A stretch of 64,000 nucleotides of DNA from Escherichia coli. GTDB lineage: Bacteria > Pseudomonadota > Gammaproteobacteria > Enterobacterales > Enterobacteriaceae. The position numbers were made by a program. The DNA lies in the NCBI RefSeq assembly GCF_003790525.1, contig NZ_CP033635.1; one strand, 5' to 3'. Shown here piece after piece: positions 31,201-34,200 of this stretch (position 1 is the first letter of the stretch; every line of letters starts with the position of its first letter).

Positions 31201-34200
31201 TCATCTCACGCAGTTTATCCATCTCTTGCGGCAGAACATCCGCAGGATGAGCGCGAGGTGGAACATCAGGATCGCTGTAGTAGTTGCCGCCCAGTTCACG
31301 TTGCAGCACATAATCGGCAAATCCGCTAATCAGTTCCCGCGTATTTGGCGCGCGAAAACCTACGGAATAGTTCATCGCATTTTCCAGCGCGTAGCCTTCA
31401 TGCGGGAATCCTGGCGGAATATAAAGAATATCGCCAGGCTCCAGCTCTTCATCGATGATGGCTTCGAACGGATCGACCTGTAACAGATCCGGGTGCGGGC
31501 AGTGCTGTTTCATTTGCAGCTTTTCGCCCACTCGCCAGCGACGACGTCCGGTACCCTGAATGATAAACACGTCGTACTGATCGAGATGCGGGCCGACGCC
31601 GCCGCCTGGTACAGAAAAAGAGATCATCAGATCATCAATACGCCAGTCCGGTAGTTCACGGAACGGTCGCATTAGCGCGGCGGTCGGCTCATGCCAGTGG
31701 TTCACTGCTTGCACTAACAATGACCAGTTAGTTTCACCGAGATGATCGTAGCTTTCGAATGGACCGTGGCTGACCTGCCATTTGCCATCCTGATGACTGA
31801 CCAGTCGACTGTCGACTTCGCTTTCCATCGCCAGACCCGCCAACTCGTCTGGAGAGATCGGGTCAATAAAATTATTAAAGCCGCGTTTTAACACCACCGG
31901 GCGTTTCTGCCAGTGACGTTCAAGAAAATCGGGCCAGTTAAGAGTGAGTTGGTATTCCATGTTAAGCATCCACAGGCTGGTATCTGCAACCGATTATAAC
32001 GGATGCTTAACGTAATGCGTGAAGTATGGACATACTTTATCAATTAGTGTTTTTTGCCGTTTCATAATGTTTCAGGTTGTGCATTATGTTTTTGATTATA
32101 AACAAATTTGTGATTTTTCTTGTTCCAGCTTGTTTCACGTTGTAGCCCTTTGTGCAACGATCGGTGTAGTTAATGGTGTAGTTAATTGTGATGACCGGAT
32201 TCAAAATTATGAGCAGAGCACTTAACAAGCTGAGCGATACACAGCTAAGGAAAATCAACGGCACACCCGCCCAAAAAACAGCCTTTCTTAATGACGGTGG
32301 AAACTTGAGCGTCAGGCATTCAACCAGCGGCCTTTTAACCTGGTATTTCACTTACAGGGCCGGAACGGGAAGGGGGGCATCACCGGAACGCATTAAGCTG
32401 GGAAATTATCCTGATCTGAGCCTGAAATCAGCCAGGGAAAAAGCCGCCCAGTGTCGCGCATGGCTGGCTGAGGGGAAAAATCCACGTCATGAGATGAATT
32501 ACACCGTACAGGAAGCGTTAAAGCCTGTAACGGTTGGCGATGCGCTCACCTACTGGCTTGAGTCGTACGCAAAGGAAAACCGTGTGGATTATGACCCACT
32601 GAAAAAGCGGCTAAATAATCACGTAATACAGCACATTGGCCCTATGCCGCTGGATAAATGCGAGCTACGGCACTGGCTGGCCTGTTTTGATCGGGTGGCA
32701 AAGCAAGCCCCTGTTTCCGCCGGGTTCCTGCTACAGACATGCAAACAGGCGCTTAAGTTCTGCCGGAAGCGGCGCTATGCAATCAGCAACGTTCTTGATG
32801 ATATGAGTGTGGCTGACGTTGGGAAAAAACCGGATATAGGCGAACGTGTCTTAAGCACCAAAGAACTGGGCCAATTATTGCAGGCACTGGACAAAAAAAT
32901 ATTTTCCCCTTACTACGTCGCACTAATCCGCCTCCTGATTGTCTTCGGATGCCGGACAGTAGAACTGAGGCTATCGGAGATCGGGGAGTGGGATTTTACC
33001 GAAATGCTCTGGACCGTTCCGAAGGAGCACAGCAAAACGAAGGTAGCCATATTCCGGCCCATACCGGAAGCGATACTGCCGTTCGTCACGCAGCTGGTGG
33101 AGCAGAACAGGCACACGGACTTATTGCTGGGGGAAGTGAAACAGGAAACCAGCGTGTCGCAGTACGGCAGATTAGTGCACAGGAGGCTTAAACACCCTCA
33201 CTGGTCACTGCATGACATCCGGCGCACCTTTACAACGATGCTGAACGATTTAGGCGTGGATCCTCACGTCGTGGAGCAGCTTACAGGCCACCAGATGCCA
33301 GGAATGCAGCGAGTTTATAATCATTCCCGTTATCTGGATGCGAAACGCAATGCGCTGGATATGTGGGTGGAGCGGTTGGAGATACTGGCGGGAGCACATG
33401 AAAACGTAACCACGCTACCAGTAGCCAGAAGAAAATAATTTTTTTCGTGTTTTTTCAGTATGCGCATACTGGATAAGTGCACAGATACAACGTGCAACAA
33501 TACACAACAACGTGAAACAACCACGAACAAGAGGTCAAAAAGTATACAGATTTATAAGTTGCTGATTTTTAATGCTCAACTGGTTTTTTATACATTAGCG
33601 AATAACGCTTTAAATAGTGAGAAAAAAGGCATAAAACGAGATTTTATGCCTTTGCATAATACTGAATTAAAATGATTTTTATTAAAATCACCCCGTTTCT
33701 GTAAAATACCCGCCACCAACATTTGCCAACTCTGAATCACCCTGACACAATCAGACACATCCCAACGCAATAGAACACGAAATAACTCTTTAAGAAACGA
33801 AAGGGGGCAATAGTGTTAAGCACTGATCGCTTTATACGTGAAAAAGAATGCGAAAAGCTAACAGGCCTTAGCCGCTCATGCCGCTACCGCCTGGAAAAGG
33901 CCGGACAATTCCCATCACGGCGTAAGCTGGGCGGTCGTTCCGTTGGCTGGTCTTTATCCGAAGTTCTGGCATGGAAGGAAAGCTGCGAGGCAGTTCACTA
34001 AAAAGACTGGCGGCACACAGCCGCCACCCATCCACTAATACAGAGATTTAACCATGAAGACTGGATATACGCCCGAACAGGGGCGGGGCTTCGTTCGGCC
34101 TGGTGAAACTGAAAAACAACAAAATCGCGGTTTTTCAGACATAAAAAAAGCGGCCCCGATAAGGAGCCGCCTTTCTGAACAATTTACCTGCCGCGCAAAA

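Follow-up and report, generated by a model that had tools for sequence, protein, structure and literature searches.

The attP sites of heterobivalent tyrosine integrases are known from lambda, with its P1/P2 and P'1-3 sites, from P4, with Vis boxes between int and the core, and from KplE1, with IntS/TorI. Vis of P4 is an AlpA-family protein, and it reportedly binds between int and the attP core, a result attributed to Cali et al. 2004. Among the phage-inducible chromosomal islands (PICIs) of Gram-negative bacteria, the prototype is EcCICFT073, which occupies the 'phoQ' att site (Fillol-Salom 2018, PMC6092414; Tommasini, Mageeney & Williams 2023, PMC10111431). AlpA is the activator of these islands (PMC6092414); it switches on its own promoter, and both excision and induction require it (PMC6092414; PMC11773190). 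The att cores phoQ.EcCICFT073, tqsA.EcCI042 and clpS_cspD.EcCIIHE3034 are listed in the supplements of PMC10111431. The same work ('Attachment sites') presents a doubled attP motif of the helper-embedded PICIs (HE-PICIs), tgTGTATTGCantgTGTATTGCa (tgTGTATTGCa), which is found 81 ± 2 bp upstream and 132 ± 2 bp downstream of the attP centre and is described as unique to that group.

We have studied a window of 64,000 nucleotides of Escherichia coli DNA, this being the whole stretch to which the coordinates below refer. It contains an EcCICFT073-type PICI (about 32035-43075) at the known phoQ att site, which is a dedicated site common to known PICIs. The island lies between chromosomal roxA (30839-31960, minus strand; Pfam JmjC_2 and ROXA-like_wH, RefSeq annotation of orthologous loci) and chromosomal, intact phoQ (43084-44544, minus strand; Pfam PhoQ_Sensor, 2.7e-87), and no tRNA gene is involved, as the first-pass annotation had stated. 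Its length of about 11.0 kb falls within the expected 10–15 kb, and the order of genes is int, alpA and replication module, all on the plus strand. The int gene (32209-33438, plus strand) encodes a P4/CP4-type tyrosine integrase with an N-terminal arm-binding domain (Pfam Arm-DNA-bind_3, PF13356, 4.7e-18, residues 15–102 of a 416-aa ORF starting at 32188; Phage_integrase, 3.1e-17), and this domain matches PDB 3jtz, the N-domain of a CP4-like integrase. The product of alpA (33813-34001, plus strand; 62 aa; Pfam Phage_AlpA, 5e-18; PDB 8c3t) is the PICI master activator, of the Vis/Xis-like kind. There follow an AAA_25/RepA helicase (36075-37481, plus strand), an SSB (38294-38704, plus strand) and a ClpP-protease/capsid fusion (39608-41524), the sole gene identified in the late region. 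Phage tail and lysis genes are absent from the island, which has captured packaging/capsid genes only; in the annotations of close relatives these are capsid, decoration, TerS or DUF1441 proteins. A search of Rfam across the island gave nothing at E ≤ 0.1.

The similarity to EcCICFT073 comprises the chromosomal site with its identity block GGACATATTT, the int-alpA module (the integrase of the closely related O157 element 28RC1 is 95% identical to that of the window), a doubled 12-mer and a phased array in each arm, and a minus-strand array after int. In contrast, the replication/late mosaic is different, with a RepA helicase instead of a primase and the ClpP-protease/capsid fusion with DUF1441 instead of a capsid plus a decoration protein, and one base of the attL block is C instead of T, at 32035. 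Overall, the integration module is an ordinary one, from a satellite family already known, and contains one modest detail not reported before.

The crossover site is already published as a short sequence at the end of phoQ. The core in the window is the block listed for phoQ.EcCICFT073 (PMC10111431 supplements), and the island junctions are the same as in the CFT073 genome itself. At both ends the identity block has the form GGACATA(Y)TT: GGACATACTT in attL (32028-32037, plus strand), defined by alignment with the K-12 empty site and by the published phoQ.EcCICFT073 block, and GGACATATTT in attR (43076-43085, plus strand). The block abuts the phoQ stop codon (plus-strand TTA, 43084-43086), which shares its first two positions with the end of the attR block. 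The heptamer GGACATA (32028-32034) is probably the overlap region in which crossover takes place. Homology with empty-site genomes stops at about 32040; the match ended at query position 66 (window 32040) in 4,826 of 5,425 genomes, and the attL junction was found in 599 of 5,426. Read from the sequence, the C' core-type half-site is CTTTATCA (32035-32042, plus strand; TTTTATCA in CFT073 and 28RC1) and its inverted partner, the C half-site, is TGATAAAA (43068-43075, plus strand), the reverse complement of TTTTATCA. The C' half-site is conserved as the first bases of the element at four different chromosomal loci. The DNA from 32035 to 32208 (plus strand), between core and int, is the P' arm of attP, i.e., element DNA and not the roxA promoter. 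In the P arm, an IHF-consensus match, AATCAATACATTA (consensus WATCAANNNNTTR), is located at 43044-43056 on the plus strand, between the doubled motif and the core, and its ATCAA-N4-TTR pattern is retained in 28RC1, WP7 and CFT073.

The repeat in question is GGTGTAGTTAATGGTGTAGTTAAT, which occurs exactly twice in the 64-kb window, on the plus strand at 32163-32186 (P' arm) and, in the same orientation, at 42979-43002 (P arm), and not at all in shuffled sequences. At both places it consists of the 12-mer GGTGTAGTTAAT repeated in tandem; no further copy exists in the whole window, where the matches with up to one mismatch are the four known 12-mers. The 26-bp repeat reported in the first-pass annotation is real, with two exact copies in an identical stretch of 27 bp (32162-32188 and 42978-43004). 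The same annotation took it for the att core, which would have been duplicated by integration into a copy that already existed between roxA and phoQ. Two exact co-oriented copies that bracket int and most of the island genes are indeed the usual signature of an att core, yet we give this reading practically no credence. The empty site of K-12 is a 75-bp roxA-phoQ intergenic region that has neither the repeat nor its flanks of about 127 bp and 73 bp. The repeat is not part of native roxA-promoter/phoQ intergenic DNA; the only piece common to this region and to the island ends is GGRCATATTTAT. The repeat is missing from all the other empty sites as well, which had been named beforehand as the result that would refute a core. 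When a single-copy site was constructed from flank, one repeat and flank, it was found between roxA and phoQ in 0 of 5,426 complete E. coli genomes at a coverage of at least 80%.

Moreover, the DNA outside the repeats belongs to the element. Beside int at tqsA, abgR and cspD/clpS, the left repeat and the 127 bp on its left side are 77–94% conserved, each site having a short core of its own, such as ATAACAGCA at tqsA and ATGATAGTTAT at cspD/clpS; these cores agree with those listed for tqsA.EcCI042 and clpS_cspD.EcCIIHE3034 (PMC10111431). Past the repeats, element homology runs for 127 bp (left) and about 73 bp (right), both at the four loci and in a circular contig that contains attP. The circular contig (L036) is metagenomic and comes from a tqsA-type relative, and it shows attP directly: the P-arm doubled motif is followed by 233 bp including the core, then by the P'-arm doubled motif and int, with both arms contiguous. 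In CFT073, 28RC1 and WP7 the left and right copies differ from each other, and therefore they are not the products of one crossover. With the published core located elsewhere, the doubled repeats are almost certainly part of the attP arms and not the crossover site.

A nested insertion, in which the outer 127 bp and 73 bp would be the remnant of an older element, was also considered. It was rejected since these outer segments are also found with int at the three other loci, and in the circular attP contig they adjoin each other.

The architecture resulting from this assignment resembles that of attP sites of the lambda/P4 type in the N-terminal arm-binding domain of the integrase, the core formed by an inverted repeat around a 7-bp overlap, the non-core motifs repeated in both arms and the IHF-consensus match in one of them; int is adjacent to attL and is transcribed in the direction leading away from the core, an arrangement shared with P4 and KplE1. 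It departs from them in that four half-sites, paired in two doubled 12-mers, serve as the putative arm sites, and these are translated, not mirrored. A further parallel is given by the HE-PICIs, whose architecture we verified in L147 and L081. Relative to the core centre, the doubled 12-mers of the window span -100 to -77 and +132 to +155; the P copy ends 77 bp before the centre and the P' copy starts 132 bp past it, leaving 23 bp up to the int ATG (coordinates re-derived by hand), compared to the published values of about 81 and 132 bp. Both systems have a tandem doubling with a 12-bp period that is present twice in the same orientation, about 80 bp before and 132 bp after the attP centre, the downstream copy lying just before int, and their half-sites share GTGTA.T. 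In contrast, the sequence in the window is GGTGTAGTTAAT and not tgTGTATTGCa, the target is a chromosomal gene (here the phoQ 3' end) instead of a prophage late gene, and there are additional TTGTTYC arrays. By analogy, the doubled 12-mer appears to work like the HE-PICI motif, although it does not belong to that set. A full-text literature search with GGTGTAGTTAAT returned unrelated papers only.

Concerning the protein that recognizes the doubled 12-mers, we think that they are probably arm-type sites of the integrase. Arm binding has its own N-terminal domain in this integrase, and a repeated motif unlike the core sequence is present at fixed distances in both attP arms and is kept in the phoQ, tqsA and cspD/clpS elements as well as in CFT073. 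Two classes of the motif can be distinguished: the TAAT class always comes with the integrase N-terminus SVRHSTSGLL (14 loci) and the CACT class always with SVKYLTSGKL (8 loci), and identical AlpA proteins are paired with both. The association is perfect in these 22 loci, but effectively it is a single change (TAAT to CACT). Between phoQ-type and tqsA-type integrases, 18 of 70 residues differ in aa 1–70 and 5 of 204 in aa 206–409, and all four half-sites have changed together in the tqsA type. This co-variation, in essence one evolutionary event, is only suggestive; the motif variant tracks the N-terminal arm-binding domain and not AlpA, and integrase arm-type sites are, therefore, the most likely reading. 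In the HE-PICIs, a divergent integrase goes together with a divergent motif. The comparison included about 17 left arms from IMG/VR relatives, most of whose contigs are trimmed at the int start, and it yielded no arms beside integrases of 77–83% identity. The 12-bp tandem period is not helically phased, a point against the arm-type reading.

It is also conceivable, even if unlikely, that a protein other than the integrase binds the doubled 12-mers, be it AlpA or a factor supplied by helper or host, and that they are sites for directionality or regulation. In favour of such a binder, the authors who described the HE-PICI motif left open whether it is bound by AlpA or an unknown protein (PMC10111431), one copy ends at the position typical of an operator, 23 bp upstream of the int start codon, and there is the binding of P4 Vis, of the AlpA family, mentioned at the outset. 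Against it, AlpA had no effect on Pint in EcCICFT073 (PMC6092414), and identical AlpA occurs with both motif variants, whereas the N-terminal domain of the integrase switches with the variant.

Even less probable, in our opinion, is that the repeat is mainly a promoter, operator or leader element of int, the second copy being a passively duplicated module of about 75 bp without a role of its own. Such a proposal would agree with the constant location of the left copy, which in all the relatives compared spans -46 to -23 relative to the int start, and with the segments of about 50 bp upstream of each copy, which are 66–68% identical between the arms, as in a segmental duplication. However, the distal copy keeps a fixed distance from the core even where the integrases are only 77% identical, the HE-PICIs keep theirs at a similar distance despite the different motif sequence, and both copies have changed together in the tqsA type. 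In addition, no sigma-70-like promoter match overlaps the repeat; the scan found neither an int promoter match in the P' arm nor an outward promoter towards roxA, and gave a single 9-of-12 match about 60 bp before alpA.

A second family of motifs accompanies the doubled 12-mers. The first-pass annotation had correctly noticed TTTCACGTTGT-type motifs to the left of both repeats, where we find TGTTTCACGTTGT at 32130-32143 and the related TCCACGTTGTTTC at 42950-42962; it had also described others, between int and alpA, as present in both orientations. All of them are 10-bp-phased TTGTTYC arrays with one orientation each. Beside the P' doubled motif there are four units, TTGTTCCAGC TTGTTTCACG TTGTAGCCCT TTGTGCAACG (32120-32159, plus strand), and in the P arm there are three, TTGTGCCTAT TTGTTCCACG TTGTTTCATA (42936-42965, plus strand). 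Related sequence is indeed present between int and alpA, at 33481-33530, as a single minus-strand array of five head-to-tail 10-bp units, TTGTTCGTGG TTGTTTCACG TTGTTGTGTA TTGTTGCACG TTGTATCTGT, which starts 43 bp after the int stop codon; the two orientations were only apparent because the unit contains the palindromic ACGT. Runs of at least three TTGT units at exactly 10-bp spacing occur in only these three places in 64 kb, compared to a mean of 0.01 runs in shuffled sequences, and neither further arrays under relaxed criteria nor other phased 6-mers were found in the island. The phased arrays are conserved in relatives, including CFT073.

Excisionase filaments, e.g., that of lambda Xis, use head-to-tail phasing of 10 bp. 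In our estimate, the chance that AlpA binds the TTGTTYC arrays is slightly short of even, and the array after int is a candidate AlpA autoregulatory site. For P4-like elements, the literature was searched for a defined site of AlpA binding, and nothing usable came up. Several points count against AlpA as the binder. In a D5-type element, with an AlpA of 61% identity, the array after int has changed to GAATATC (three units) while the arm arrays stayed TTGTTCG; no TTGT arrays were found in the HE-PICIs; the array after int is about 190 bp upstream of the sole promoter-like match before alpA; and the absence of an AlpA effect on Pint in EcCICFT073 (Fillol-Salom et al., PMC6092414) is counted here as well. 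The D5-type element, which combines unchanged TTGTTCG arm arrays with the SVRHSTSGLL N-terminus despite its divergent AlpA, could also be explained if both the doubled 12-mers and the TTGTTYC arrays were integrase arm-type sites, with AlpA binding elsewhere. We regard this as very improbable, since the arm arrays are unchanged in the tqsA type, where the integrase N-terminus has changed, the head-to-tail 10-bp phasing is in the style of an excisionase filament, and the array unit recurs after int, 1.45 kb from the core, with no obvious arm-site role there. The suggestion in the first-pass annotation that the TTTCACGTTGT-type motifs are integrase arm-type or AlpA/Xis sites holds in so far as they are very probably binding sites for proteins of the recombination module, a description that suits the supposed core as well.

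Taking these elements together, we can propose how the module might operate; which protein binds which repeat is what we infer. Crossover would take place in GGRCATA, a 7-bp overlap immediately downstream of the phoQ stop codon, flanked in attP by the inverted core-type sites TGATAAAA and TTTTATCA. The attP of the excised circle would read ...GGTGATAAAAGGACATAYTTTATCAATTAGTG..., with the two doubled motifs about 231 bp apart from start to start. The catalytic and core-binding domains of an integrase tetramer would sit on the core, whereas its N-terminal arm-binding domains would grip the four half-sites as arm-type sites. The IHF-like site at -35 is predicted to bend the P arm, and phased T-tracts spotted by eye in the P' arm may help to bend that one. 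The TTGTTYC arrays in both arms and after int would be binding arrays for a second protein, most likely AlpA, as a Vis/Xis-like directionality factor and autoactivator. As a whole, an EcCICFT073-type PICI at phoQ whose repeats are integrase arm sites is the explanation that we favour, with reasonable though limited confidence.

We are more tentative about a wider generalization, to which we would give somewhat less than an even chance: that the doubled-motif attP scaffold is a general design of the P4-type integrase clade of PICIs, with half-sites read by the N-domains of the integrase and co-evolving with them and AlpA placed on the arrays. If so, TAAT/RHSTSGLL and CACT/KYLTSGKL would form a natural orthogonal integrase/arm-site pair on one conserved scaffold, and AlpA would use one type of array for two jobs, giving excision its direction at the two arms and, at the array after int, switching on alpA itself, which would couple induction and excision. 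PICIs are already used as delivery and diagnostic vehicles. If the N-domain of the integrase reads the motif, the TAAT and CACT variants would be a specificity swap provided by nature, of use in the dissection or engineering of PICI integrases.

The main value of this analysis is a correction, namely that direct repeats at the ends of an island may be exact without being the att core. Here, boundaries drawn from the repeats would be off by 127 bp at the left end and by about 73 bp at the right end, and element DNA would be misread as a host promoter. Besides this, there is a small positive result: the best-studied Gram-negative PICI family has a doubled arm motif at the HE-PICI positions. As to the host gene, the insertion does cut roxA off from its native upstream DNA, as had been proposed, although about 67 bp of native sequence are left and not about 200 bp, counted upstream of the annotated ATG at 31960; another in-frame ATG is located upstream, at 31969.

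The island of ~11 kb lies between the chromosomal genes roxA (30839-31960, minus strand) on its left and phoQ (43084-44544, minus strand) on its right. Its first gene encodes a P4/CP4-type integrase (int, 32209-33438), followed by alpA (33813-34001), Icd-like genes, a RepA-type helicase, SSB and a ClpP-protease/capsid fusion. The doubled 12-mer GGTGTAGTTAATGGTGTAGTTAAT occurs exactly twice in the window, at 32163-32186 and 42979-43002, and not at all in shuffled sequence, so the repeat described by the first-pass annotation is real and not due to chance; the TTTCACGTTGT-like strings were also found where it had placed them. 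The identical stretch at the two copies is 27 bp long, and no further 12-mer copy with at most one mismatch was found in the window.

The interpretation of this repeat as the attachment core did not stand. The annotation had proposed a comparison with empty sites, and this comparison refutes it: the roxA-phoQ intergenic region of K-12 is only 75 bp long and lacks the repeat, the 127 bp left of the left copy and the ~73 bp right of the right copy. The sole sequence common to K-12 and both junctions is GGRCATA(Y)TT(T)AT. A search of 5,426 complete E. coli genomes for the single-copy site that the att-core reading predicts, built as left flank, one repeat and right flank, gave no match with 80% coverage or more, the best matches being K-12-like empty sites (66–69% coverage). 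Of these genomes, 599 carry the true left junction, in which the native roxA leader meets the element arm; in the remaining genomes, homology ends at window position 32040. The 151 bp at 32040-32190 also lie beside int at tqsA (inside the gene, 94% identity), near abgR (87% identity) and between cspD and clpS (77% identity), and in the alignment of loci similarity starts at TTTATCAWTTAGTG, window position 32036. The right ends of islands at the other loci likewise consist of element DNA and a short site-specific block, the common block being GGACATA at phoQ, ATAACAGCA at tqsA and ATGATAGTTAT at cspD/clpS. Judged from these comparisons, the DNA outside the repeats is itself mobile. In a tqsA-type relative, the IMG/VR contig IMGVR_UViG_3300045988_152974 (L036; circular assembly, 119-bp terminal overlap, 10,979-bp unit), the order is P-arm doubled motif, 233 bp with ...TTATATATAACAGCATTTTATCATTTAGTG..., P'-arm doubled motif and int, which places both doubled motifs inside the excised element. 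Moreover, the copies are unequal in CFT073 and 28RC1 (left TAAT,TAAT; right TAAT,CAAT) and in E. coli WP7-S18-ESBL-09 (WP7; left CACT,CACT; right CACT,CATT). Empty sites, mobile outer DNA, the L036 attP and unequal copies together rule out the 27-bp repeat as the crossover site. As a separate observation, L036 (bases 1-300 and the last 119 bases) is a circular or concatemeric tqsA-type phage-inducible chromosomal island (PICI) with an intact attP, which is direct evidence that islands of this type are captured in excised form in a virome or metagenome.

The real attachment site is formed by the attL block GGACATACTT (32028-32037) and the attR block GGACATATTT (43076-43085). The latter block ends inside the phoQ stop codon (TTA on the plus strand, 43084-43086), with which it shares two bases, so that phoQ is preserved. 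The reconstructed attP core, TGATAAAA - GGACATA - (Y)TTTATCA, is an 8-bp inverted repeat around 7 bp, perfect in CFT073 and 28RC1; this is the standard layout for tyrosine recombinases. The third base of GGRCATA (32030 and 43078 in the window, with equivalents in L002) is polymorphic, being G in K-12 and GF60 and A in the window, CFT073 and 28RC1. Within one genome, attL and attR always carry the same base here (A/A in the window, G/G in GF60), which fits a position inside the overlap region. At 32035, the C/T difference comes from the element, so that the exchange lies left of this base. Relative to the GGACATA centre, the doubled motifs lie at -100 to -77 (P arm) and +132 to +155 (P' arm), and the int ATG at +178. 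A match to the IHF consensus, AATCAATACATTA, is located at 43044-43056, and relatives retain the ATCAA-N4-TTR pattern of this match.

The attL/attR files of Tommasini, Mageeney and Williams (2023) list the identity block GGACATATTT for phoQ.EcCICFT073 and phoQ.EcCIRM12579, ATAACAGCA for tqsA.EcCI042 and ATGATAGTTAT for clpS_cspD.EcCIIHE3034 (PMC10111431). Our independently derived phoQ, tqsA and cspD/clpS blocks are the published ones, which identifies the window island as a mosaic PICI of the EcCICFT073 family at the known phoQ site. The island, its att site and its general mechanism are already known. No complete E. coli genome carries at least 80% of the island (window 31700-43400) in one place, the closest being strain GF60 (64% coverage, 96.7% identity). 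The window's late region, with the ClpP-protease/capsid fusion, resembles cspD/clpS-type islands such as that of E. coli D5, whose late region holds the capsid fusion and a DUF1441 gene. CFT073 and SLK172 share the integration module with the window but differ in the late region, a combination typical of modular mosaicism.

What, then, could the doubled 12-mers do? Helper-embedded PICIs (HE-PICIs) carry a doubled motif, tgTGTATTGCantgTGTATTGCa, in two co-oriented copies 81±2 bp upstream and 132±2 bp downstream of the attP centre; it was proposed to bind integrase arm domains, AlpA or an unknown protein, and was reported as not found in other PICIs and as unique to HE-PICIs (PMC10111431). We confirmed this architecture in two HE-PICI contigs. 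The window repeats have the same period, copy number and orientation and nearly the same positions, but a different sequence, with GTGTA.T common to both. The integrase contains the Pfam domain Arm-DNA-bind_3, and among 22 loci the motif variant tracks its N-terminus (TAAT with ...SVRHSTSGLL..., CACT with ...SVKYLTSGKL...), while identical AlpA proteins are paired with either variant. Between phoQ-type and tqsA-type integrases, 18 of the first 70 residues differ, compared with only 5 of 204 in the catalytic half, and all four half-sites are altered together in the tqsA type; the co-variation is essentially one event. On the basis of the HE-PICI-like layout, the arm domain and this co-variation, we lean towards the doubled motifs being integrase arm-type sites. 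The suggestion that the motifs of the region are binding sites seems reasonable, and would apply to the proposed core as well. The one unreported detail is that a doubled arm motif also exists in the EcCICFT073 family, in a version of its own; our literature search found no mention of it.

The TTTCACGTTGT motifs are head-to-tail, 10-bp-phased TTGTTYC arrays. Four units (32120-32159) and three units (42936-42965) lie directly upstream of, and co-oriented with, the left and right doubled motifs, respectively; five more (33530-33481, opposite strand) begin 43 bp past the int stop codon. Runs of at least three TTGTTYC-type units occur nowhere else in the 64 kb (mean in shuffles, 0.01), and relatives keep the arrays at all three places. 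CFT073 has the same doubled motifs and arm arrays, with six units after int instead of five. Excisionase-type winged-helix proteins such as lambda Xis bind direct repeats phased one turn apart, and AlpA belongs to the same fold family. AlpA also activates its own promoter and is required for excision (PMC6092414; PMC11773190). For these reasons AlpA is our preferred candidate for binding the arrays, on mixed evidence: AlpA has no effect on Pint in EcCICFT073 (PMC6092414); no arrays were found in HE-PICIs; and the D5 island (L008, 1838-1867; between cspD and clpS) has another 10-bp-phased array after int, GAATATCGGG GAATATCTGC AAATATCTTC (GAATATC x3), with att arms that still carry TTGTTCG arrays and an AlpA 61% identical to the window's. 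The capsid-forming PICI in tqsA of WP7 has a fourth array, TTGTTCG/TTGTTCC/TTGTTCA at 10-bp spacing (L007, 8754-8783), flanked by the perC terminator and the capsid/packaging operon; it would fit an array-binding protein with an additional role in late-gene control, and has no counterpart in the window island.

On the host side, phoQ is intact, and the insertion does displace the native roxA upstream region, as the first-pass annotation had noticed. Only ~67 bp of native DNA (31961-32027) are left upstream of the annotated roxA ATG, and beyond them lies the element P' arm. Any phoPQ read-through into roxA would now be interrupted by 11 kb, and no outward promoter-like match towards roxA was found. 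The native roxA leader (31958-32020, minus strand; K-12, L001 859-921) contains an 11-bp perfect inverted repeat, GTTAAGCATCC...GGATGCTTAAC, ending directly before the annotated roxA AUG. The 96-nt leader is predicted to fold with -24 kcal/mol (z = -2.75 versus shuffles), and the hairpin could mask the ribosome-binding region of roxA, or it could work as a phoQ-distal terminator/attenuator. In SLK172 (L195, 1-7500), a lambdoid prophage end with tail fibre genes, the effector genes espK and espO, and ISApl1 adjoins potB, ~5 kb from the PICI, and in CFT073 (L197, 648-821) only a tail-fibre-assembly gene remnant lies upstream of potB; these two strains point to the potB side as a second integration hotspot.

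The int-alpA intergenic region holds two further elements. A perfect 16-bp palindrome, CAGTATGCGCATACTG (33456-33471), lies 18 bp past the int stop codon, just ahead of the five-unit array; it is kept in phoQ-type and tqsA-type relatives and missing from the abgR-type and D5-type regions. Since it is weak as an RNA hairpin (z = -1.3), it is more likely an operator bound by a dimeric protein. A 13-bp hairpin, AAGGCAUAAAAUC/GUUUUAUGCCUU (33619-33652, minus strand), followed by UUUUUUCUC, is kept in relatives and, with -13.4 kcal/mol (z = -5.5), looks like an intrinsic terminator of a leftward transcript. It has no Rfam match and may be part of an unannotated small or antisense RNA.
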